Positions 1 to 9,974 of a stretch of DNA of 9,974 nt are shown here, in pieces (positions within the stretch are counted from its first letter, which is position 1; every line of letters begins with the position of its first letter). Location: the NCBI GenBank assembly GCA_037147375.1, contig JBAWVI010000031.1, positions 1 to 9,974 on the forward strand, given 5' to 3'. The position numbers were made by a program, and so were the translations under genes. Source of the DNA: an archaeon (lineage in GTDB: Archaea; Iainarchaeota; Iainarchaeia; Iainarchaeales; CSSED10-239). Under the pieces are notes generated by a model that worked only from the letters and a program-made list of their open reading frames with translations, was not told where the DNA came from and did no database searches.

Positions 1-2
1 AG

Positions 3-206
3 AAAGAATATGATATTGCTACAAAGATAGGAAATAGATATTCTCTGGATTTTCTAAAGAAAGAAGTAGATAAATGTGTTCTTGTTTGTGAGAATTGTCA
101 TAGAGAAATCCATCAAGAAGAAATAGATAAGATAAACGAGCCAATAGAAGATGCTTATGTAGCTAAATTAAATGAAGTAAGTAAAGCATCTTTGTTTAAA
201 ATTTAA
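3..206 (+). CDS. HNH endonuclease, C-terminal fragment (5' end lies outside the window)
   Basis: Frame 3 is open from the window edge to TAA at 204-206. My translation is KEYDIATKIGNRYSLDFLKKEVDKCVLVCENCHREIHQEEIDKINEPIEDAYVAKLNEVSKASLFKI. The CENCHREIH block (C-x-x-C-H-x-x-x-H) is the distal Cys pair plus His of the HNH/His-Me finger motif. It is absent from the ORF track because it has no start codon in the window. Confidence 0.6.
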   Translation, partial: KEYDIATKIGNRYSLDFLKKEVDKCVLVCENCHREIHQEEIDKINEPIEDAYVAKLNEVSKASLFKI

Positions 207-221
207 TTTAATTTGTAAAAG

Positions 222-239
222 TGTCCAACAAATATAGCA
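222..239 (+). repeat. Direct repeat copy 1: TGTCCAACAAATATA(G)CA
   Basis: 15 nt (222-236) are identical to 2362-2376, and 17 of 18 nt match over 222-239 versus 2362-2379. It lies in the 37-nt spacer between the HNH fragment and the convergent 244-867 gene. Confidence 0.5.
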
Positions 240-243
240 AACT

Positions 244-867
244 CTATTTATATCTATTGGGTATTTTCACATAGTTTGGCAAGATAATTATTTCTCTTGT
301 GAATTTTTCCTTGCTCACTAAATCAAGCTTTATATTCTTTGGAACTAATTGGTTATGTTTAATGTCTGAGAACCTAGCCTCTATTTCCTTAACAAACTTT
401 GGGTTTGAGAGGTTCTCTGTCGTAAACTTAATAGGCAAAGGAACAGAATGTCCTCTCAGACCCATATACCCTTGGAAACTAAAATAATTATCAAAATAAC
501 TCATTGCAAGTTCGCGAAGAGTCTTGTATACTGGATGCCTATATCTTAGCCCAAGAAATTTACTTTGAGCAATAGCTCCATATAATCCTTTCACCTTAAA
601 CACACACAAGACATGATCTTCATCTTTAACAGCAGTTAAATCTATTAAAAAAGTTTTAATCTTATGCTCTTGCAAAACAAAGCAAGCAAACATTGCTGCT
701 TCAAGGCAGTCTCCTTTCTTTTCTCTCATTACATTAAAAACAGATATTCTCTTTCCTGTGTTGTATCCAATTACATTAACAAACTCTTGGATCTTCCAAG
801 GAGCCTTAAGAGAAGTTATTATTCTCTGCTCTTCTTTACTAAAAATATTAAGTTTATTATTCTTCAT
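244..867 (-). CDS. Transglutaminase-like / papain-fold cysteine peptidase superfamily protein (putative)
   Basis: 207-aa ORF. KKGDCLEAAMFACFVL resembles the G-x-C-x-x-x-A nucleophile helix of transglutaminase-like cores. A downstream EDHVLCVF could supply the His, and several Asp residues follow, consistent with a Cys-His-Asp triad. No Shine-Dalgarno-like element is present. A TATA-like box sits about 26 nt upstream of the ATG. Confidence 0.55.
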   Translation of the reverse strand: MKNNKLNIFSKEEQRIITSLKAPWKIQEFVNVIGYNTGKRISVFNVMREKKGDCLEAAMFACFVLQEHKIKTFLIDLTAVKDEDHVLCVFKVKGLYGAIAQSKFLGLRYRHPVYKTLRELAMSYFDNYFSFQGYMGLRGHSVPLPIKFTTENLSNPKFVKEIEARFSDIKHNQLVPKNIKLDLVSKEKFTREIIILPNYVKIPNRYK

Positions 868-889
868 CTAAAAATAAAGCATGCAAAGT

Positions 890-897
890 TATTTAAA
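890..897 (-). promoter_or_regulatory. Candidate archaeal TATA box (TTTAAATA on the minus strand) for a leaderless 244-867 transcript
   Basis: The reverse complement of 890-897 is TTTAAATA. Its centre is about 26-27 nt from the A of the ATG at 867, the canonical archaeal TATA-to-TSS distance, and no SD lies between. AT-rich DNA produces many TATA-like strings, so confidence is low. Confidence 0.3.
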
Positions 898-963
898 CCT
901 AATATACTACATATAATTAAGGTTTTAAAGAAAAATAAGGTAATATTTGAGAGATGATTATAT

Positions 964-1200
964 ATGTACGGTGATGTTAGACCATCTATGTTTGGTAATA
1001 AAGCAAAAGAAAAACAAGAACAAGTAAAAGCATCAACTAAAGATGTAGCTTATCTTAGAAGACCATATAGAGGAAGAGAAGTAATAGTTTTTATTGATAA
1101 AGATGATAATTTTTATACAAATTTTGATAATACTAGATGTTCACATTTCTCTGAAGCTTTGCAGAAAGCTTATGAGAAGATTAATCAAGGAGAATTTTAA
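964..1200 (+). CDS. Hypothetical small protein (78 aa)
   Basis: ORF with no competing frame and a weak purine-rich stretch (gagagatga) upstream. I recognise no motif. It is divergent from 244-867. Confidence 0.5.
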   Translation: MYGDVRPSMFGNKAKEKQEQVKASTKDVAYLRRPYRGREVIVFIDKDDNFYTNFDNTRCSHFSEALQKAYEKINQGEF

Positions 1201-1226
1201 TTAAAAGATATTGGAGGGTATAAAAA

Positions 1227-1526
1227 ATGGAAATTTTCGCATTATTAGGACTTACTTTAGTAATTGTTGCATGGGTAATGCAGTTATTATCAACTATTAA
1301 AGGAAGTAAATCAATTCAACCACAATTCGTTTTATTTTATTTAATTGGTGTTATATTTCTTGTAATTGATGGTTTTATAAGCGGACTTAATGATATTGCT
1401 TTCTTAAATTTAGTGTGTTTACTTATATCATTTGCTGTATTTGTTAGATTAATAAGTATAGATCATGAACACCCAAAAGCAATCGTTGTTAAAGCAAAAC
1501 CTAAATCAAAAAGAAAGAAGAAATAA
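1227..1526 (+). CDS. Small 3-TM membrane protein with a Lys-rich tail (possibly SemiSWEET/PQ-loop-like, not established)
   Basis: GGAGGG lies 8 nt upstream of the ATG. There are three hydrophobic segments (about residues 3-21, 34-52, 57-76) and a KAKPKSKRKKK tail. The size (99 aa), 3-TM layout and the I-x-G-x-x-S-G...N-x-V pattern in TM2-TM3 recall SemiSWEET. The canonical PQ after TM1 is not clearly present. Confidence 0.6.
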   Translation: MEIFALLGLTLVIVAWVMQLLSTIKGSKSIQPQFVLFYLIGVIFLVIDGFISGLNDIAFLNLVCLLISFAVFVRLISIDHEHPKAIVVKAKPKSKRKKK

Positions 1527-1528
1527 AT

Positions 1529-1551
1529 CTTTCTTTTTTTTCTTATTTTTT
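1529..1551 (+). terminator. Oligo-T tract downstream of 1227-1526
   Basis: tctttcttttttttcttatttttt begins 3 nt after the TAA and contains a T8 run (1534-1541) and a T6 run (1546-1551). Oligo-T is the usual archaeal termination signal. The tract overlaps the 3' end of the convergent vapC. Confidence 0.4.
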
Positions 1552-1974
1552 AATTACTTTTCTTGGATTAATTACTTTAATTCCTTTGATCTTTTTAAAA
1601 TCATTTTCATTAAAAGTGTAAATTGTTGTTATGTTATTGTCCAACATATTCTGTAATAGTAAAGCATCATAAAAGTTTATATTTTTCTCGAAAGATAAGC
1701 TTAATGCATCAGAAACTGTGGATTGATTATAGTGAATTATTTCAAACATATTTTGGATGTTAATAAGATCTTCCTTTAGCTTCTCTTTATCACTTATCTT
1801 TAACTTACCCCTTGTAATATTTGCATATTCTTCTAAGTTTTGGATACTTATACAAGCTTTATGCTCGTTATATAGCTTTAGGATAAGGTTTCTTGCACTC
1901 TCTTTTCTATCTTTATCATTATTTGTGTAAGCTGCAATAAGTACATCTGTATTAATCAAGCATTTATCTACCAT
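1543..1974 (-). CDS. vapC: PIN-domain ribonuclease toxin, VapC family
   Basis: 143 aa. The N-terminal LINTDVLI gives the first PIN acidic residue (D10). NLEEY gives E48/E49, NFYDALLL gives D103, and TFNENDF gives D125. Together these form the conserved acidic quartet in the usual order and spacing. The gene overlaps the upstream antitoxin gene by 11 nt. Confidence 0.8.
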   Translation of the reverse strand: MVDKCLINTDVLIAAYTNNDKDRKESARNLILKLYNEHKACISIQNLEEYANITRGKLKISDKEKLKEDLINIQNMFEIIHYNQSTVSDALSLSFEKNINFYDALLLQNMLDNNITTIYTFNENDFKKIKGIKVINPRKVIKK

Positions 1975-2209
1975 AATAATCAGCTCTTATTTTTGGGTTT
2001 TTTGCTCCCTTTCCTACTTTTGTAGATCCTTCAATTGATGTTAATTTTAAGAAATCTTCAGAAATATTTGCTTTTTCAGTAGCTAGTTTTAATATAGCTT
2101 TGATAATAGTTTTTGAAAGAGCATCCTTTCTATCTCCATAATGTGCTTTAGCTGCATCACGAAGCATTTTTTCAGAAGTCTTATCAAGAGATATTGTAAT
2201 TACACCCAT
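1964..2209 (-). CDS. vapB: Antitoxin, ribbon-helix-helix (VapB-like)
   Basis: 81 aa. The N-terminal ITISLDKTSEKMLRDAAK fits an RHH beta-strand plus helix. It sits immediately upstream of the PIN gene and overlaps it (1964-1974). GAGGGG lies upstream of the ATG. Confidence 0.7.
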   Translation of the reverse strand: MGVITISLDKTSEKMLRDAAKAHYGDRKDALSKTIIKAILKLATEKANISEDFLKLTSIEGSTKVGKGAKNPKIRADYYGR

Positions 2210-2361
2210 ATAATCCCCTCACATTGATTTCGGCTTTATTTATATTATAACGAATAGAACAAAAGGTTTTTAAATCTTGTTAATTAAGTAACTAACTAAT
2301 TAAATAGTTAATTATTTAAATAAACCATTAAGTAGATAATTTAAATTATTTTAATAACTAC

Positions 2362-2379
2362 TGTCCAACAAATATAACA
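2362..2379 (+). repeat. Direct repeat copy 2: TGTCCAACAAATATA(A)CA
   Basis: Second copy of the 222-239 motif, in the same orientation. It lies in the 268-nt spacer upstream of vapB. Confidence 0.5.
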
Positions 2380-2447
2380 GGTAAATAATAGAGACTGCAA
2401 TTGTGTATTATGTTTATCAATCTATTTTTGATCTTAAAAAATAAGAA

Positions 2448-2469
2448 ATAAACCCTAATTAGGGTTTAT
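2448..2469 (-). terminator. Perfect 22-nt palindrome followed by a T-run: hairpin terminator of the 3287-2478 secreted-protein operon
   Basis: ATAAACCCTAA/TTAGGGTTTAT is self-complementary over 2448-2469. On the minus strand it starts 8 nt after the stop codon and is followed by TTCTTATTTTTT (2447-2436). Confidence 0.55.
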
Positions 2470-2477
2470 CTTTTTTA

Positions 2478-3008
2478 TTAATTACAGATTCCATCATATG
2501 CGATTGGGACATTATCTGCAACACATTCATTACAATAGGTCTTTCCATCAACTCCACACACGCCAGGACAATCCATTGTACAAATCTTTTCTGGTATTGT
2601 TTTTTCGTAAACCCCATCTTTGCATAACTCTCTCATGAATGCCCATTCTTCACAAGCTGTTCCATTTGCAAAATTACAAATTCCAATCTGCCCAGCTGAT
2701 GTATCTATTATACTTAAAGTTCCACCATTATTTATACAATAAGTAGAAGCTGGATTTGCAATCTGAGTTGTTGGGCAAGAAGTTACTTCCCATCCACAAG
2801 TTTTTTCTGCAGTTAATAAACATCTTCCAGTAGGTCCAGAATAATTTATTCCATCAGGGCACAATATGATTGGTCTATCCATTGCAGGCCCACACTTAGA
2901 TACATCACAAGTACTACCAATTGTTTTTGGTATATAGTTACTCCAGATTAATAATCCAGCAACAACTGCAACCAAAATAACAATTCCAATAATTATTACT
3001 TTATTCAT
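2478..3008 (-). CDS. Secreted or membrane-anchored cysteine-rich protein with DUF333 and Kazal-type inhibitor-like domains
   Basis: The N-terminal signal anchor is MNKVIIIGIVILVAVVAGLLIW. Residues 84-129 (nt 2622-2759), ANPASTYCINNGGTL...GICNF.NGTACEEWAFMRELC, match the DUF333 pattern NPAS.YC...GG...G.C.....C.EWAF.RG.C. Residues 143-175 (nt 2484-2582), CTMDCPGVCGVDGKTYCNECVADNVPIAYDGIC, match the Kazal core [PG]VCG.DG.TY.N.C.A...G.C. I count 16 Cys. Confidence 0.8.
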   Translation of the reverse strand: MNKVIIIGIVILVAVVAGLLIWSNYIPKTIGSTCDVSKCGPAMDRPIILCPDGINYSGPTGRCLLTAEKTCGWEVTSCPTTQIANPASTYCINNGGTLSIIDTSAGQIGICNFANGTACEEWAFMRELCKDGVYEKTIPEKICTMDCPGVCGVDGKTYCNECVADNVPIAYDGICN

Positions 3009-3017
3009 TTAATTTCC
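2974..3017 (-). repeat. Duplicated RBS plus signal-anchor module, copy 1
   Basis: 44 nt match 3253-3296 with one mismatch (2999 c versus 3278 a). The module covers the GGAAATTAA-ATG ribosome-binding region and codons 1-11 (MNK[V/L]IIIGIVI). Confidence 0.8.
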
Positions 3018-3287
3018 CCCTTTTTGTTTAATACAAGTGCCCATCGAATCAGATGTAGTTGGATTTTTCTGCATTTTACATGTATATCCATCTGGACATC
3101 CAAATCCAGCAATTCCTCCACACACACAAACTCCTGTTCCAAATATTATATTTACTCCATAACTTGAATTTCCTGCTTCACAAAATTCTCTTGTAACTGC
3201 TTCTGATTTATATTTTTGTAAAAATAAGAATCCAGAAATCAAGATAGCAATTAAAATAACAATTCCAATAATTATTAATTTATTCAT
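3009..3287 (-). CDS. Small secreted cysteine-rich protein (92 aa)
   Basis: GGAGGAAATTAA precedes the ATG. The signal anchor MNKLIIIGIVILIAILISGFLFL is nearly identical to that of the downstream gene. The mature part has 6 Cys, including CGGIAGFGCPDGYTC. Its stop codon abuts the ATG of 2478-3008 with no gap. Confidence 0.7.
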   Translation of the reverse strand: MNKLIIIGIVILIAILISGFLFLQKYKSEAVTREFCEAGNSSYGVNIIFGTGVCVCGGIAGFGCPDGYTCKMQKNPTTSDSMGTCIKQKGGN

Positions 3288-3296
3288 TTAATTTCC
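3253..3296 (-). repeat. Duplicated RBS plus signal-anchor module, copy 2
   Basis: See 2974-3017. It has the same orientation and lies 279 nt away. Confidence 0.8.
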
Positions 3297-3378
3297 TCCA
3301 TATCCACTGATACCAAATAACTTAACTTCCAAAAGTCTATTAAACCTTATCTTTCTATTATATATAGGGGTTTATTTT

Positions 3379-4767
3379 ATGAAGAACAAAGAAAGATCTA
3401 ATTTTAAAGCTAATAAAAGCATATATGATGTTATAATTGTTGGTGCAGGACCTGCTGGTCTCTTTTGTGCAACAGAAATATCTAAACTAAGTAAAGATAC
3501 TAAAATTTTAATTATTGATAAAGGAAACCTAGTTGAAAACAGAAAAAAGAATGAAGTTATGACTGGTTTTGGAGGAGCAGGTACCTTCTCTGATGGTAAA
3601 CTCCATTTCACTCCAGTTCTTTCTCATGAAAAAATGTTCCATCTTTATTCAAAGGAAGAATATCAAAAATATCTAGATTATGTTGAAGAAGAATTTCTAT
3701 CTTTAGGAGTTCCAAAAGACTATTATCCAAAGAACCTAAAAGAAGCTCAAGAGATGGTTGATAAAGCAGAAAGAAACAATATTAAGCTATTTATTAGAAA
3801 AACAATTCATGTTGGAACAGATAAGCTAGTACCAATCATCAAAAAGATTCAAGATAAGCTAAAGAACAACAAAAACATCACTCTCCTCCCATTAACAGAG
3901 GTTACTGACCTAATTGTTAATAAAAAACAAGTGGAAGGAGTAGTAATTTCTAATGGAAAGAAAGTCTATGGTAAGAAGATAGTTTGTGCTCCAGGAAGAT
4001 ATAATGCTTCTTGGGTTGAAAAAATAACAGATAAATACAAAATAGATAAGGTATTTGATAAGGTTGAAGTTGGAGTAAGAGTTGAATTCCCATCTTCAAT
4101 TAATTCTGCTCATTCAGAGCAAATGTATGAAACTATCTATTATATGTATACTCCAACCTTTGATGATGTTGTAAGAACCTTCTGTCCTTGCCCTAAAGGA
4201 TATGTAGCTTTAGAAGATTATAAAGATTATGTTTGTGTAAATGGATATTCTAACTCAACTAATGATGGAGTTAATTCAAACTTTGCTTTAGTTGTTGAGA
4301 TTAATCTAACAGAACCACTTGAATCTACAAGAAAATATGCTGAGTTCATAGCTCGTGGTGTTACTTTAATAGGTGCAGGTAAACCAATAGTTCAAAGATA
4401 TAAAGATCTTAAAATGGGAAGAAGATCAACTACAGAAAGATTAGGAAATGCACATATTACTCCTTCTTTAAAGGAAGCTGTTCCAGGAGATATTGGAATG
4501 GCTATGCCTTACAGAATAACTAAAGATTTAATTGAAGGAATTGAGATGTTATCAAAGATTCTTCCTGGCCTTAACGGAGATTCAACTTTCCTTTATGCTC
4601 CTGAAGTTAAGTTTAGATCAAATAAGATAAAGACAGATAAGTATCTAGAAACAGATATTAAGAATCTTTATATGCTTGGAGATGGAGCTGGAGTTTCTGG
4701 TAATATAATAGGAGCTGCAATTTCTGGTGTTGTTTGTGGAAGAGGAATCTTACACAAAAAGAAATAA
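3379..4767 (+). CDS. FAD-dependent protein, COG2509-type uncharacterised dehydrogenase family
   Basis: 462 aa. YDVIIVGAGPAGLFCA is a GxGxxG dinucleotide-binding fold, followed by IIDKG. FGGAGTFSDGKL and the C-terminal LGDGAGVSGNIIGAAISGVVCG are typical of this family. AGGGG lies upstream of the ATG. Confidence 0.85.
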   Translation: MKNKERSNFKANKSIYDVIIVGAGPAGLFCATEISKLSKDTKILIIDKGNLVENRKKNEVMTGFGGAGTFSDGKLHFTPVLSHEKMFHLYSKEEYQKYLDYVEEEFLSLGVPKDYYPKNLKEAQEMVDKAERNNIKLFIRKTIHVGTDKLVPIIKKIQDKLKNNKNITLLPLTEVTDLIVNKKQVEGVVISNGKKVYGKKIVCAPGRYNASWVEKITDKYKIDKVFDKVEVGVRVEFPSSINSAHSEQMYETIYYMYTPTFDDVVRTFCPCPKGYVALEDYKDYVCVNGYSNSTNDGVNSNFALVVEINLTEPLESTRKYAEFIARGVTLIGAGKPIVQRYKDLKMGRRSTTERLGNAHITPSLKEAVPGDIGMAMPYRITKDLIEGIEMLSKILPGLNGDSTFLYAPEVKFRSNKIKTDKYLETDIKNLYMLGDGAGVSGNIIGAAISGVVCGRGILHKKK

Positions 4768-4799
4768 TTTATAAACCTAAGTTAACTAAATAATTACTA

Positions 4800-5186
4800 G
4801 TGATATTTATTATGGTTGAGAAACAAGAGCAAGAAAGTGCAGCAGCAGGTGTTGTAGATTTTATTTATAGAACTATTTATGGATTATTATTATCAACAGG
4901 TCTTGTTATCTTAAATAATATAATTGACTTCTTTTGGGGTTCTCAAATAATTCAGATATATATTACAATAACTTCATCAATAATTCTTTCTGCGTATTTT
5001 ATATTTCATAAATTTTCAAAGGTTAGTTTTGTTTATTTACTTGGATGGGTTATTGGATTATTTATTTTATATAAGCTTGATTTATCATTTTTTAGTTTAA
5101 GTATGCAACAATTAGTTTTATGGGTTGTTTTACCAGTAATAATTTTAATAGTTAGAGGAATAACTAGTAGGAAAAGAGGAAATTAG
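4800..5186 (+). CDS. Small polytopic membrane protein, paralog A
   Basis: 128 aa from GTG 4800. ATG 4812 (MVEKQEQ...) is an equally plausible start. It has about four hydrophobic segments. It aligns along its length with the next ORF: FSKVSFVYLLGWVIGLFILYKLDL versus FTKANFFYLVGWIVGIFLLYEAEL. Confidence 0.7.
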   Translation: MIFIMVEKQEQESAAAGVVDFIYRTIYGLLLSTGLVILNNIIDFFWGSQIIQIYITITSSIILSAYFIFHKFSKVSFVYLLGWVIGLFILYKLDLSFFSLSMQQLVLWVVLPVIILIVRGITSRKRGN

Positions 5187-5193
5187 ATTAGAT

Positions 5194-5586
5194 ATGCAAC
5201 CACCAAAACTTTATCATCATGCACATCATACTTGGCATGGAACAACTGCCTTTGTTTTAAAAATTATTAAAAGTTTATTATTGTTAGGTGCACTATTATT
5301 AATTAATGGATTTACTGAATATTTTTTAGGTAAAGAAGTTATATCTTATCTTGCAATTCTTTTAATAACTGTTTTATTTTCAATGTATGCAGTAATTTCT
5401 CATTTCACTAAAGCTAATTTTTTTTATTTAGTTGGATGGATTGTAGGTATATTTTTATTATATGAAGCAGAACTTCCATTCTTAGAGTTTGATGCAATAC
5501 ATCTATCAATCTATATCGGAGTTCCATCAATAATGTTTATAGTTAGATTTATTATGTATCTTTATTCAGATAGAGAAAAATTTTAG
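5194..5586 (+). CDS. Small polytopic membrane protein, paralog B, with a His-rich N-terminus
   Basis: 130 aa, starting 7 nt after the stop of paralog A. It has the same hydrophobic pattern and the conserved GW[VI][VI]G[IL]F[IL]LY core. The N-terminus, YHHAHHTWH (nt 5212-5238), has 5 His in 8 residues (H8-H15). Confidence 0.75.
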   Translation: MQPPKLYHHAHHTWHGTTAFVLKIIKSLLLLGALLLINGFTEYFLGKEVISYLAILLITVLFSMYAVISHFTKANFFYLVGWIVGIFLLYEAELPFLEFDAIHLSIYIGVPSIMFIVRFIMYLYSDREKF

Positions 5587-5602
5587 TAGGTAAGGAATAG
5601 AT

Positions 5603-6247
5603 ATGGCTAAATTAATGAATAAACTAATTGATCCAATATTTAAAAGGAAAATCAATAAACGCTTAGACGCAATTAGAAAAACACATATTGAATCTCTTCC
5701 TAAGAAATCATTTGCAAAGAAATTTCAAGATAAATTTAAATCTCGCAAGGATATGGGAAAAGAGAGAGCATTAATAAGATTTAAAGAAGATAAATCAATG
5801 CATGATATATCTTTAATTAGAAATTTAGGAGGAGCATTAAGTGCAGATTTTTTATTACGAAGAATAGCAAGAAAACATGGTTATAATATAAAAGAAGCAA
5901 CTGATATTCATCAGCATCCAATGTCAGAAAATACAATTTGTAAACCATCAGCTACTGATTTAATTACCTTTGGTGAATTTTATATAGAACACAAAATACA
6001 TAAATTTCAAATTTCATATATGGATAATAATAATATAAAAGAAATTGGAAGAACATATCTTCAAATTAAGCAAGATAAAAGATCAGTACAAGCTTTAATG
6101 AATGAAATTACAAATATTAATAAATTAAATAATAAATCTAGAAAAACCACTGATAATTATAATAATTTAATTGAATGTTTCAACATTAAACAAATTGGGT
6201 TAAATGGATATAAATATAATCTAGAAACAAAAAAGTTTATTAAATAA
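5603..6247 (+). CDS. Hypothetical protein, highly basic N-terminal third, no recognisable domain
   Basis: 214 aa. AGGTAAGGA lies upstream of the ATG. It starts 16 nt after the previous gene and ends 14 nt before the CDPS gene. The N-terminus is Lys/Arg-rich (KRKINKRLDAIRK...KKSFAKKFQDKFKSRK). I recognise no motif. Confidence 0.65.
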   Translation: MAKLMNKLIDPIFKRKINKRLDAIRKTHIESLPKKSFAKKFQDKFKSRKDMGKERALIRFKEDKSMHDISLIRNLGGALSADFLLRRIARKHGYNIKEATDIHQHPMSENTICKPSATDLITFGEFYIEHKIHKFQISYMDNNNIKEIGRTYLQIKQDKRSVQALMNEITNINKLNNKSRKTTDNYNNLIECFNIKQIGLNGYKYNLETKKFIK

Positions 6248-6261
6248 TAATTCTGATTTTC

Positions 6262-6951
6262 ATGCAAATTAAAAATATATTTTCTCCAGATAATAAAATA
6301 TTTACACTGGAAACTATAAAACACAATAATTTCATGCTTGGAATAAGCATAAACAATAAATATTTTACAAAAGATAATATTCATAAATTTATAGATTGGA
6401 TGCTTCAAAATACAGATGGTAAAGTTTGTATTATGATTGTAGATACAATTCAAGCAATTAATAATGAAATCTTAAACCATCAATCTAAAGAAAAAGCATT
6501 AGAGAAAGCAATGAGAGATGCAAAAAAGATACACAATCGTTGTAAATTAATTCTTGATAGCTATTCAAAAATCGAAAAAGATAGATTAGTTATTATAAGA
6601 TGGACAGACATTAATAAAGATCCAGCATATGTTAATAATTTAAAAATCATCAAAGATGAATTTAATCAAAATCCAAAGTTTAAAGAATTTATAATTGGCT
6701 TTGTAAAAAAGCAGTTAGGAGATATAACTAATAGATTAAATACAGATGAAACTACATATATCTCTGATTATTTATTATGTGAAATCCCTGAATTATTAAA
6801 TGGAATAAATTATAATAATACTATATATGATGTTTGTATATATCCAGGTAGTTTTAAAGAACTTATGTTAGGAATATGCACTTTTGAAAAACTAATGTCT
6901 AAACTCAAAATACAAAATAAAAATAAATTTATAGAAATTTATGTGGATTAA
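6262..6951 (+). CDS. Cyclodipeptide synthase (CDPS), a tRNA-dependent diketopiperazine synthase
   Basis: 229 aa. [23 protein letters not shown]...VCIMIVDT aligns without gaps to AlbC ALIGISAGNSYFSQKNTVMLLQW...VVYVDT and to YvmC [34 protein letters not shown] aligns to NYVLAEAPLF and [19 protein letters not shown] aligns to LCYHIDTP and AYHRPWK. The inferred catalytic residues are S29 (nt 6346-6348), Y170, E174 and Y194. Their spacing (141, 4, 20) equals that of AlbC S37/Y178/E182/Y202. Reference sequences are recalled from memory. Confidence 0.85.
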   Translation: [229 protein letters not shown]

Positions 6952-6953
6952 AT

Positions 6954-7406
6954 ATGATAAAATTTACTTGGGAAGATATAGAAAAATATTCTTTTGAATT
7001 ACTTAAAAAATTTAATAAATCTAAACTTAAATTTGATTATATTATTGGTATTAATAGAGGTGGATTAATTCCTGCTTTAATTATTTCTAATCAGCTTGAT
7101 TCTAAGCTTATTTGTATTGGAGCAAAATCATATAACGGAAAGAAAAGAAATAAGCTAAATATATATAGTTATCCTATTGTCAATCTAAGAAATAAGAATG
7201 TATTAATAATTGATGAAATTTGTGATACGGGGATTACGTTAAATACTATAAAAAAGAAAGTTAAACAGAAGTACAATCCAAAGCAAATAATTACTTCTTC
7301 TTTAATCATAAATAAGCTAAACTGCAAGATTTATCCTGATTTTCATGTAATTGAGATCGAAAATAAGACTAAAGAATGGATTGGATTTCCTTGGGATAAA
7401 AAATAG
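6954..7406 (+). CDS. Type I phosphoribosyltransferase, Gpt-like (xanthine-guanine PRTase family / COG2236)
   Basis: 150 aa. The PRPP-binding motif is VLIIDEICDTGITL (nt 7200-7241). The layout resembles E. coli Gpt: N-terminal FTWEDI (Gpt VTWDML), IIGINRGGLIPA (Gpt IIAVSRGGLVPG), SY in the flexible loop, and C-terminal EWIGFPWD (Gpt TWIEQPWD). The ATG is 2 nt after the CDPS stop codon. Confidence 0.8.
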   Translation: MIKFTWEDIEKYSFELLKKFNKSKLKFDYIIGINRGGLIPALIISNQLDSKLICIGAKSYNGKKRNKLNIYSYPIVNLRNKNVLIIDEICDTGITLNTIKKKVKQKYNPKQIITSSLIINKLNCKIYPDFHVIEIENKTKEWIGFPWDKK

Positions 7407-7440
7407 TATCTAATTTTTGATTTTAAAAAGAAATGAGGTT

Positions 7441-7462
7441 AGAACATCATTTCTGATGTTCT
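7441..7462. terminator. Hairpin between the convergent PRTase gene and ftsZ (9-bp stem, 4-nt loop)
   Basis: AGAACATCA-tttc-TGATGTTCT is perfectly complementary, and extra AGG/CCT pairing is possible at 7436-7438 with 7465-7467. On the minus strand it is followed by CATTTCTTTTT. On the plus strand it is preceded by TTTTTGATTTT (7414-7424). Confidence 0.55.
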
Positions 7463-7475
7463 TTCCTATTTAGAT

Positions 7476-8579
7476 TTATAATTCGTCAAGTCCGAAGTCG
7501 TTATCGTAAGATCTTCTTGAGCCGCCTTTTGCTGCTTGTTGATTGTTCTTACCATTGAATCTTGTACTTCCTTTGATGAATGGAGACTTAACTCCTGTGA
7601 AGATAGCAATTACTTCAATCTTGTTATCGAATGTGGGATCTATTCTAGCACCCCAGATAACATTTGCGTTTGGATCGATTTCGTCTGTTAACATTTCACC
7701 AACAGCATTTGCTTCTCCAAGTGTTAACTCAGCTCCGCCTGTAATGTGTATTAAACATCCAGATGCTCCTCCGATATCAACATCTAATAAAGCGTTCTTT
7801 AATGTGTCTTCAACAACTTCTTCAACCTTATTAACTGATTGTGATTCTCCAACAGCAATAACTGATAATCCTTTACCGCCCATTACTGTTCTAATATCAG
7901 CGTAATCTAAGTTAATTAATGAAGGTTGTGTAATTGTTTCTGTAATTCCTCTAATTGTTCTTGCAATTACTTCATCAGCAACTTTGAAAGCATCTTGTAC
8001 TGGTAAGTTTGGAACTAATTCAACTAATCTATTGTTATCAATGATTATGATTGTATCACAAACATCCTTTAATACATCAATTCCTTCTTCAGCCTTCTTA
8101 GCTCTTGCTCTTTCAAGTACGAATGGGAATGTAACTATAGCAATAACGATTGCTCCTTGTTGTTTAGCTATTTGAGCAACTACTGGAGATGCTCCTGTTC
8201 CTGTTCCTCCACCCATTCCAGATGTTATGAATAATAAATCTACACCATCAAGTATTTCTTCAAGTGCACCCTTTGAAACTTCAGCAGCCTTAGCTCCGAT
8301 TTCTGGATAAGCTCCTGCACCAAGTCCGTTTGTTATTGATTTTCCGATTAATAATTTAGTTATGTCATCAGATATTATTCCTAAATGTTGTCTATCTGTG
8401 TTAACAGCTACTATGTGTGCTCCAGCAACTCCCATTGCTGCAATTCTATTTACAGAGTTATTACCAGCACCACCAACACCAACTACCATGATCTTTGGAG
8501 CTGCAAATTCCTCATCCTTTGAGAAAGATGCAGTGTTTTCTGATTTATCATTTATTGCTTTTGATACAATTGACTTCAT
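7476..8579 (-). CDS. ftsZ: Cell division GTPase FtsZ (archaeal FtsZ1-type)
   Basis: Motifs present are VGVGGAGNN, the tubulin signature [12 protein letters not shown], the T7 loop [11 protein letters not shown], and the archaeal-type [22 protein letters not shown] and [13 protein letters not shown]. The ORF track starts at GTG 8588. I prefer ATG 8579 (MKSIV...) because AGGTG (8590-8586) then lies 6 nt upstream. Confidence 0.95.
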
Positions 8580-8872
8580 CTTATACACCTTTTTTTTATT
8601 TTTTTTGTTTTTTATTAATAATATTTTAATATTATTTCAACCTATTTTAACCCCTTTGTTTGATAATCTTTTAAAAGTTATACTGATGTTTCTATAATGA
8701 AATTCCGATTAAAGGCAGATTTTCTAATATAATTTGTATAACTCCGTTTACGTTAAAATAATATCTTTGATATTATAAATTAGGACAAATACTTTTTAAA
8801 TAGATATTATGCATAATCTTTTTGAAAAACTAATTAAAATATATTAAAATTTGAATCAAAGTTGGGAATTAC

Positions 8873-9430
8873 ATGTATAAATTATTGTTTATTGTTGTGT
8901 ATGTTTTAATCTATTACTATCTAATTTATAGATTAACTAGAAAGCATATGGATACTACTACAGAAACAATAAATATGTTTAAAACTGATTTTTATACTTC
9001 TCAATACTTTGTAAGCTTTTTCATTCTAGCTTTATTTTCTTTAATATATTATATATTTTATACTAATTTATTCACATTTACTGTCCAAGATATTGTGTTT
9101 TCTATAGTGATTATTTTTTCTGGTTTAATAGAATATAATGCAATTAAAAATCTTGCAGAAAACTATTATCCTCAAATTGGACCTGAAAAAAGATTAGTTA
9201 CAAGTGGTATCTATTCATTGATTAGACATCCAATTTATTTATCTGCTTTAGTTTTAGGCTTAGGTCTCTATGCTCTTCTTGCTTTAAATATTTTAATGTA
9301 TACTTACCCTCTACTAATCATTTCAGTAGTAATAAAAGTAGAACAAGAAGATAAATATCTAACTAAAAGATTTAAAGCATACAATAAATATAAGACTAAA
9401 AGCTATAAGTTAATTCCTTATATCTATTAA
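8873..9430 (+). CDS. Isoprenylcysteine carboxyl methyltransferase (ICMT) / phospholipid methyltransferase family membrane protein
   Basis: 185 aa with multiple TM segments. RLVTSGIYSLIRHPIYLSALVLGLG matches the family core L.T.G.Y...RHP.Y. Confidence 0.7.
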   Translation: MYKLLFIVVYVLIYYYLIYRLTRKHMDTTTETINMFKTDFYTSQYFVSFFILALFSLIYYIFYTNLFTFTVQDIVFSIVIIFSGLIEYNAIKNLAENYYPQIGPEKRLVTSGIYSLIRHPIYLSALVLGLGLYALLALNILMYTYPLLIISVVIKVEQEDKYLTKRFKAYNKYKTKSYKLIPYIY

Positions 9431-9440
9431 AAAGAACTAA

Positions 9441-9959
9441 TTATTCGCCAAGCTTATATCCATGTCTTTCAAACACTACTTTTTTATGACTTGTAAATCT
9501 TGTAAAGTTTATAATAAGATCAGCAATAACTTTTGCCCAGAATGCACTGAAATGCAAAAACTCAACAAAAAGGATTATCAATACAAATACAAGAATTACT
9601 CCAACAATATTAATGAAATAATATCTAATAAACGATTTTATGTTTCTTATAGAAAATGTTTTACTTTCATCTTTAAATGTATACTTTTTATGTAACGAAA
9701 AGTTTACAAACCCTTTACTTAAGTCCGATATAACTACTACTGGGATATAAAAAAAATTTAACCAGTTAACAAATATTAAGATTAGACCTAAATCTACGAT
9801 TGTACCAACCATTCCAAGAGTAACATACTTAAGATATCTCTTATATTTATAAAAAAAGCTATAACTAATTAAAAAGTAATAAAATCTATGGAATATAGTA
9901 TGTTTGCTTATTTCAATTAATGATTTAGAAAACCTATACTTATTTTTATTAGATCTCAT
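9441..9959 (-). CDS. GtrA-family membrane protein
   Basis: 172 aa. AGGAG lies 10 nt upstream of the ATG. Four TM segments carry the GtrA pattern: VTLGMVGTIVDLGLILIF...ISDLSKGFVNFSLHKKYTF, then ...AKVIADLIINFTRFTSHKKVVF. There is an N-terminal extension of about 40 aa, so an internal start cannot be excluded. Confidence 0.65.
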   Translation of the reverse strand: MRSNKNKYRFSKSLIEISKHTIFHRFYYFLISYSFFYKYKRYLKYVTLGMVGTIVDLGLILIFVNWLNFFYIPVVVISDLSKGFVNFSLHKKYTFKDESKTFSIRNIKSFIRYYFINIVGVILVFVLIILFVEFLHFSAFWAKVIADLIINFTRFTSHKKVVFERHGYKLGE

Positions 9960-9974
9960 TTATATTGTTCTCCT

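Follow-up and report, generated by a model that had tools for sequence, protein, structure and literature searches.

A gene for a cyclodipeptide synthase (CDPS) occupies positions 6262..6951 (+) of contig JBAWVI010000031.1 (assembly GCA_037147375.1), of which we analysed positions 1 to 9,974, referred to here as the window. The ATG-to-stop open reading frame (ORF) encodes 229 amino acids, a sequence that is exactly that of GenBank MEI8364373.1, named 'MAG: tRNA-dependent cyclodipeptide synthase [archaeon]' (MAG, metagenome-assembled genome) and encoded on a contig of 17 kb. Upstream on the same strand are two tandem genes for small membrane proteins and a gene for a protein with a JAMM/MPN+-like motif; downstream are a type-I phosphoribosyltransferase (PRTase) gene and a convergent ftsZ. 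This gene order is kept in three lineages, as two membrane-protein genes, the JAMM-like gene, the CDPS gene, the PRTase gene in some, and ftsZ.

The encoded protein matches two profiles of the CDPS family, the Pfam profile PF16715 at 48.2 bits (curated cut-off 27, E = 1.5e-12) and the NCBIfam profile TIGR04539 (tRNA-dependent cyclodipeptide synthase, tRNA_cyclodipep) at 78.6 bits (cut-off 45, E = 4.6e-22). When the PDB was searched with phmmer, ParcuCDPS of Parcubacteria bacterium RAAC4_OD1_1 was the best match through seven entries (7QB8 and its mutants, E ~4e-21, query residues 19-199), with other CDPSs ranking behind. This XYP-subfamily enzyme is the nearest characterised homologue, 33% identical over 173 residues, and it is the best match by fold as well, with a template-modelling (TM) score of 0.75. 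An AlphaFold2 model built from 61 homologues reached a mean predicted local distance difference test (pLDDT) score of 96.9 and a predicted TM score of 0.91. Foldseek comparison of the model with the PDB returned CDPS crystal structures for all 50 of the top 50 matches (TM 0.62–0.75), taking in ParcuCDPS, the Nbra-, Fdum- and Rgry-CDPSs, and AlbC, YvmC and Rv2275, the three enzymes with which the initial annotation of this DNA had proposed comparison. Through these matches the model is assigned the single-domain Rossmann-type fold of CDPSs, which is related to the catalytic domains of class-Ic aminoacyl-tRNA synthetases, and its strand 24-29 terminates at Ser29. Of the ATP-binding motifs of true class-I synthetases, HIGH is absent from the sequence, and KMSKS has a single lookalike, L-M-S-K-L at 211-215, which relatives do not conserve. 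The initial annotation had recognised the ORF as a CDPS, and its call is borne out by the above-cut-off profiles, the CDPS fold and the conservation of all catalytic residues.

The catalytic residues were located by alignment to AlbC and ParcuCDPS. The predicted acyl-enzyme nucleophile is Ser29 (codon 6346..6348; AlbC S37, ParcuCDPS S26), which is at least 90% conserved in a 61-sequence alignment (A2) and invariant in a 12-sequence alignment (A3). Asp61 (6442..6444), close to invariant in A2, aligns in 7QB8 with ParcuCDPS D58, the residue that places the catalytic Ser in that enzyme (PMC7613923). Tyr170 and Glu174 bound a Y-L-L-C-E motif (6769..6783; AlbC Y178 and E182), and Tyr194 precedes Pro195 in the XYP signature (6841..6846; AlbC Y202/H203), with Pro195 invariant in A2. 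We also aligned 121 sequences, namely full-length homologues together with AlbC, ParcuCDPS and the query, and 103 of them, the query included, carry the S/Y/E/Y quartet. The ParcuCDPS set S26/D58/Y167/E171/Y191 corresponds residue for residue to S29/D61/Y170/E174/Y194 of the window protein.

The initial annotation had reached its assignment through AlbC, the NYH-subfamily enzyme of Streptomyces noursei (PDB 3OQV) that makes cyclo(Phe-Leu), and had described a gap-free alignment at a constant offset of eight residues. We used an AlbC sequence identical to 3OQV residues 2-239. The individual equivalences hold: an offset of 8 sets S29, N32, Y170, E174 and Y194 opposite S37, N40, Y178, E182 and Y202, with Pro195 opposite His203, and it also fits the GIS..N.YF block and W46/W54. 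The gap-free alignment does not hold, however: the optimal pairwise alignment, 22% identical over 148 residues and broken by five indels, passes through offsets 8, 7, 6, 5, 9 and 8. The offset is 7 for the VDT block (60 in the query, 67 in AlbC) and 5 for the P.Y block (121 and 126), and only the two ends are in register because the internal indels cancel. Compared without gaps at offset 8, the two proteins share 25 identities over 229 positions with a BLOSUM62 sum of −108, which lies about 3 standard deviations above the −156 ± 15 of 2000 shuffles (best of 30 offsets), the best shuffle scoring −79. The phmmer E-value of the query against AlbC is 0.088. By itself, the AlbC comparison is therefore a weak argument for CDPS identity; it is the family-level evidence from Pfam, NCBIfam and ParcuCDPS that places the assignment beyond chance. 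In fold, AlbC and the query agree (TM 0.62–0.69).

Placement on the XYP side, as the initial annotation had it, agrees with both the Y194-P195 pair and the XYP character of the nearest characterised and solved relative. At AlbC position 203 the query has Pro195 and not the His of the NYH subfamily, and so belongs to another subfamily than AlbC. The combination of Asn32 (6355..6357; the X40 position) with Tyr-Pro had been read as a mixed signature. It is instead the norm of the clade: the Asn32 column holds N in about 100 of the 121 aligned sequences and is nearly invariant in A2, while AlbC positions 40/202/203 read N-Y-P in 92 of the 121 and N-Y-H in four. We considered N-Y-P as an intermediate between the NYH and XYP subfamilies and rejected it, because position X40 is non-conserved by the definition of XYP (PMC7613923) and ParcuCDPS itself reads N-Y-P.

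Both further lineages that keep the gene order carry an intact CDPS gene. At loci L043, L044 and L045 the CDPS is 87% identical to that of the window and is followed by the PRTase gene, whereas at L001-L003 it is 70% identical, the JAMM-like gene is duplicated and the PRTase gene is absent. A member of this 70% cluster (the P0003 cluster) was found on a contig of 978 kb, a length that would be in keeping with a small genome. The ratio of nonsynonymous to synonymous substitution rates (dN/dS, Nei-Gojobori) of the CDPS gene is 0.13 against L044 and 0.17 against L001, which shows that selection maintains the gene; the corresponding values are 0.05 for FtsZ and 0.09 for the PRTase, the CDPS evolving faster than its housekeeping neighbours. 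We conclude that the ORF is a genuine CDPS gene kept by selection.

The contig is tied to archaea by ftsZ (7476..8588, −; TIGR00065, 389 bits), which runs convergent with the cluster and lies 70 bp past the PRTase gene, at a distance of 525 bp from the CDPS gene with the PRTase gene counted. Its product matches Methanocaldococcus jannaschii FtsZ1 best in the PDB (304 bits, all others at most 262 bits). Among 5.8 billion proteins, the named FtsZ homologues at 69–82% identity are all from DPANN archaea or labelled 'archaeon', under names that include Candidatus Iainarchaeum sp. (82%), Diapherotrites and Micrarchaeota. The G+C content of the window ranges from 0.20 to 0.37, and together with the DPANN-type FtsZ this fits the AT-rich archaeal genome described initially. 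Since the GTDB representatives searched do not include the window's own genome, the taxonomic placement is taken from these FtsZ homologues and from the 'archaeon' label of the GenBank protein.

To place the protein among its relatives, we used an exhaustive HMMER search of 1.84 billion representative proteins, since a word-indexed search returned only four close homologues. This search found 300 homologues at E <= 1e-3, the nearest outside the query's own cluster being 38–41% identical. We also scanned a single genome from each GTDB species, with A3 since A2 was too diverse for the purpose, and obtained 35 loci, all at most 39% identical to the query. By title, the largest group is Patescibacteria, also called the Candidate Phyla Radiation (CPR), comprising Saccharibacteria, Parcubacteria, Andersenbacteria, Campbellbacteria, Gracilibacteria, Moranbacteria and Paceibacterota; six of the 35 are archaeal (four Woesearchaeota, one Nanoarchaeota and one 'archaeon'), and there are a few other bacteria. 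In four of these six archaea-titled loci, the contig also bears genes of archaea or of archaeal type: Kae1 (424 bits, cut-off 375), RNA polymerase subunit K (RpoK) and exosome Rrp42 at L006, aIF2-alpha and a proteasome-assembly chaperone at L025, archaeal-type ribosomal protein L1 at L016, and an ATP-dependent DNA ligase at L007. An archaeal CDPS had been flagged as rare and noteworthy; it is less rare than this implied, given the existing GenBank name and the six archaeal titles.

In a bootstrapped neighbour-joining tree the window lineage (the query, P0002 and P0003) forms a separate long branch with 100% support. P0007 is placed as its sister at 68% support; the contigs of P0007 have a bacterial look, with genes for MerR, Nif11, GGDEF and toxin-antitoxin systems. 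The Woesearchaeota, Nanoarchaeota and 'archaeon' CDPSs (among L005-L039) form no single archaeal clade but are scattered among those of Patescibacteria, which suggests repeated exchange of CDPS genes between these two ultra-small groups, though the deep nodes of the tree are weakly supported. The uncharacterised DPANN and Patescibacteria enzymes share with the query the family, the N-Y-P signature and small-genome hosts. They differ from it in sequence (at most 39–41% identity) and in gene neighbours, which in the wider CPR/DPANN clade are SET-domain proteins at six loci (L014 3194..3685, L015 3813..4250, L016 2664..3140, L020, L026 and L033), GNAT acetyltransferases at four (L008 6726..7181, L013, L025 5507..5947 and L027) and S51 peptidases at three (L017 6939..7568, L028 and L034), in place of the JAMM-like protein and PRTase. 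These neighbours differ from the classic diketopiperazine-tailoring enzymes and may belong to uncharacterised pathways. Some homologues are longer (321–726 amino acids) with the CDPS domain at either end (P0009, P0043, P0069, P0074, P0103, P0112, P0122, P0123 and P0139; also L035 5968..7122), which suggests fusions to other domains. One further match, P0056 (3015 amino acids, with 15 stretches matched to query residues 59-135), is apparently a false positive caused by repeats.

If it works as AlbC and ParcuCDPS do, the window CDPS would use two aminoacyl-tRNAs in a ping-pong cycle (PMC5816076, PMC7613923). The first aminoacyl group would enter pocket P1 and be transferred onto Ser29, which Asp61 would position. 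The second, held in pocket P2, would then attack the acyl-enzyme with the help of Tyr170 and Glu174 to give a dipeptidyl-enzyme, and Tyr194 would assist the intramolecular cyclisation that releases a 2,5-diketopiperazine.

To examine the pockets, we mapped the published P1 positions (AlbC 33-35-65-67-119-185-186-200) onto the query, where they read M25-G27-M58-V60-W114-E177-L178-C192 (MGMVWELC), against GAYAWELY in ParcuCDPS. The two enzymes have a W-E-L core in common, including the glutamate at position 185 in AlbC numbering (E177, codon 6790..6792), which corresponds to ParcuCDPS E174, a residue required by that enzyme for accepting histidine (PMC7613923). The two pocket tyrosines of ParcuCDPS, Y55 and Y189, which contribute to histidine binding, are replaced by Met58 and Cys192, and P2 differs throughout, starting F147-K150-Q151-D154-G196 (FKQDG..) in the query and reading FEWKYTR in ParcuCDPS. 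ParcuCDPS makes cyclo(His-Pro) and cyclo(His-Glu) (PMC5816076, PMC7613923), products that cannot be carried over to the query because the identity is too low; nor can the product be predicted from the P1/P2 motifs. With the glutamate kept and both tyrosines replaced, the idea that P1 takes a polar or basic residue is only a guess, and a rather doubtful one.

The gene immediately upstream (5603..6247, +) stops 14 nt before the CDPS start and encodes a lineage-restricted protein of 214 amino acids, with only four homologues among the 5.8 billion proteins and no sequence match in Pfam, NCBIfam or the PDB. It carries the motif E...H103-x-H105-x10-S116-x2-D119 (E...H-Q-H-P-x9-S-x2-D), in which the spacer from histidine to serine is 10 residues, compared with 7 in JAMM/MPN+ (E...H-x-H-x7-S-x2-D). 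E54/E62, H103, H105 and D119 are invariant in two alignments of this protein (A1 and A4), while S116 is invariant in A1 and is not among the residues listed as invariant in A4. A low-confidence model from the four homologues (pLDDT 62) gave the JAMM domains of AMSH, Sst2 and Rpn11 as best Foldseek matches (E = 3e-3, TM ~0.3), and because the model is poor we apply the label of JAMM-like metalloprotease tentatively. The gene adjoins the CDPS gene in all three lineages (L001 copies 8570..9280 and 9280..9996; L044 8001..8633), encoding 210–238 amino acids in the two further ones. On the other side, the PRTase gene (6954..7406, +; 150 amino acids, PF00156, E = 1.4e-19) starts 2 nt past the CDPS stop. 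Its best matches are xanthine and hypoxanthine PRTases, below equivalog cut-offs, with the best NCBIfam match, xanthine PRTase, at 68 bits under a cut-off of 138. The 87% lineage has this gene and the 70% lineage lacks it, so the PRTase probably serves purine salvage rather than acting as a partner of the CDPS. A tBLASTn search of the 35 related CDPS loci found no homologue of either protein, indicating that both neighbours are specific to the window lineage, and neither is a known diketopiperazine-tailoring enzyme.

Taken together, these data make it very probable that the window encodes an active XYP cyclodipeptide synthase in a DPANN archaeon, probably one like Iainarchaeota or Diapherotrites, with activity expected by analogy to its characterised relatives. 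Several points weigh against this. No similar P1/P2 motif occurs among the enzymes in Table 2 of PMC5816076, and several XYP CDPSs, among them the enzymes from Geminicoccus roseus, Aminiphilus circumscriptus and Fusarium fujikuroi, yielded no product when tried in E. coli (PMC5816076); membership of the family does not guarantee detectable activity. None of the canonical tailoring enzymes (cyclodipeptide oxidase, P450, 2OG oxygenase or methyltransferase) was identified beside the gene with Pfam and NCBIfam profiles, whereas AlbC clusters with the cyclodipeptide oxidase AlbAB, and the literature searched contains no report of CDPS activity on archaeal tRNAs. The unusual pocket and the lack of nearby tailoring genes would also suit a protein that has the CDPS fold and a non-canonical output, acylating another acceptor, releasing a linear dipeptide or deacylating tRNA, perhaps together with the JAMM-like neighbour. 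The constant presence of this lineage-specific metalloprotease-like gene beside the CDPS gene, and the SET, GNAT or S51-peptidase genes that stand next to CPR and DPANN relatives where classic tailoring genes might be looked for, point the same way. Such an output is nonetheless quite improbable in our view, as every residue for the two-step and cyclisation chemistry is conserved, the cyclisation residue Tyr194 included, and ParcuCDPS is an ordinary cyclodipeptide producer.

Two further explanations concern the gene and not its chemistry. Patescibacteria are the source of the nearest solved homologue and of most related loci, and the CDPS region has a G+C content of 0.20–0.22 compared with 0.37 for ftsZ, as might be seen if a bacterial gene had become archaeal only by mis-binning or chimeric assembly. 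We find this scarcely credible: the CDPS gene and the DPANN-type ftsZ share one contig at close range, which removes mis-binning as an issue, independent assemblies from ENA, JGI, Logan and NCBI reproduce the arrangement for three lineages, and other DPANN CDPS contigs bear Kae1, RpoK, Rrp42, aIF2-alpha and archaeal-type L1. The same AT-richness, with a CDPS identity between lineages of 70% where the neighbouring FtsZ is 97–98% identical, could also mark a horizontally acquired gene that is now a functionless, decaying relic. An intact frame in all copies, the low dN/dS and the retention of all catalytic residues make decay highly improbable.

CDPSs have been studied almost wholly in bacteria. 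According to a 2014 review, archaea had no known CDPS gene (PMC4159871), a 2018 overview of the family leaves archaea unmentioned (PMC5816076), and in the literature searched no paper ties CDPSs to DPANN archaea. ParcuCDPS is the enzyme of a CPR bacterium, whereas the host of the window CDPS is an archaeon. Because an annotation pipeline already names the protein and several public DPANN genomes carry related genes, it is a new, divergent CDPS that extends an established enzyme family in a little-studied host and is not a new kind of system, and the definition of a CDPS is unchanged by it. Together with the related loci, it shows that purifying selection keeps CDPS genes in several DPANN lineages, phylogenetically interleaved with those of CPR bacteria. 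Organisms with presumably minimal biosynthesis would be investing charged tRNAs in a small molecule able to diffuse, and the enzyme, if archaeal tRNAs are its substrates, has to recognise their acceptor stems. With its new pocket motif the product could widen the known range of cyclodipeptides. A more elaborate proposal, which we regard as unlikely, is that the JAMM-like metalloprotease and the divergent XYP CDPS form a lineage-specific two-gene module that is fixed beside ftsZ in Iainarchaeota-like DPANN archaea. The module would have been acquired by inter-domain transfer within a CPR/DPANN pool of CDPS genes, and would use archaeal aminoacyl-tRNAs to make a cyclodipeptide of novel specificity, perhaps one for which P1 takes up a polar or basic residue, that acts in the relationship between episymbiont and host. 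If true, this would be the first archaeal CDPS with demonstrated activity.

The remaining features of the window lie around this cluster. Between the convergent PRTase and ftsZ genes, a 9-bp hairpin with a T-rich tail (7441..7462, +), identified by pattern match only, is a possible end of the transcription unit. A sigma-70 promoter scan of the window gave 25 sites compared with 32.9 in shuffles and is uninformative for an archaeon, and no tRNA genes were found in the window. The two tandem genes upstream of the cluster (4800..5186 and 5194..5586, +), syntenic in all relatives, encode paralogous membrane proteins of 128 and 130 amino acids that are ~30% identical to each other and match no family.

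Over 8.6 kb, the window (220..8833) aligns to locus L004 on CAYUKR010000015.1 (3959..12572) at 99.45% identity, with 47 substitutions and no indels. The CDPS proteins of the two are identical, while the PRTase and a Vasohibin-like protein differ slightly; the difference is a strain or assembly variant. The Vasohibin-like protein (244..867, −; 207 amino acids), 5.4 kb from the CDPS gene, has a sub-threshold match to Vasohibin, a transglutaminase-like cysteine protease, and in a Saccharibacteria MAG a homologue with 35% identity (L033 5160..5729) is encoded ~200 bp away from the CDPS gene. A gene for a PIN-domain protein of 143 amino acids (1543..1974, −) overlaps by 11 nt with an upstream 81-amino-acid ORF (1964..2209, −), a layout as in a VapBC-type toxin-antitoxin pair. 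Finally, two adjoining genes (2478..3008 and 3009..3287, −) encode cysteine-rich proteins with a near-identical N-terminal signal or anchor (MNK[VL]IIIGIVIL...), the larger of which combines DUF333 with a segment resembling Kazal-type protease inhibitors.

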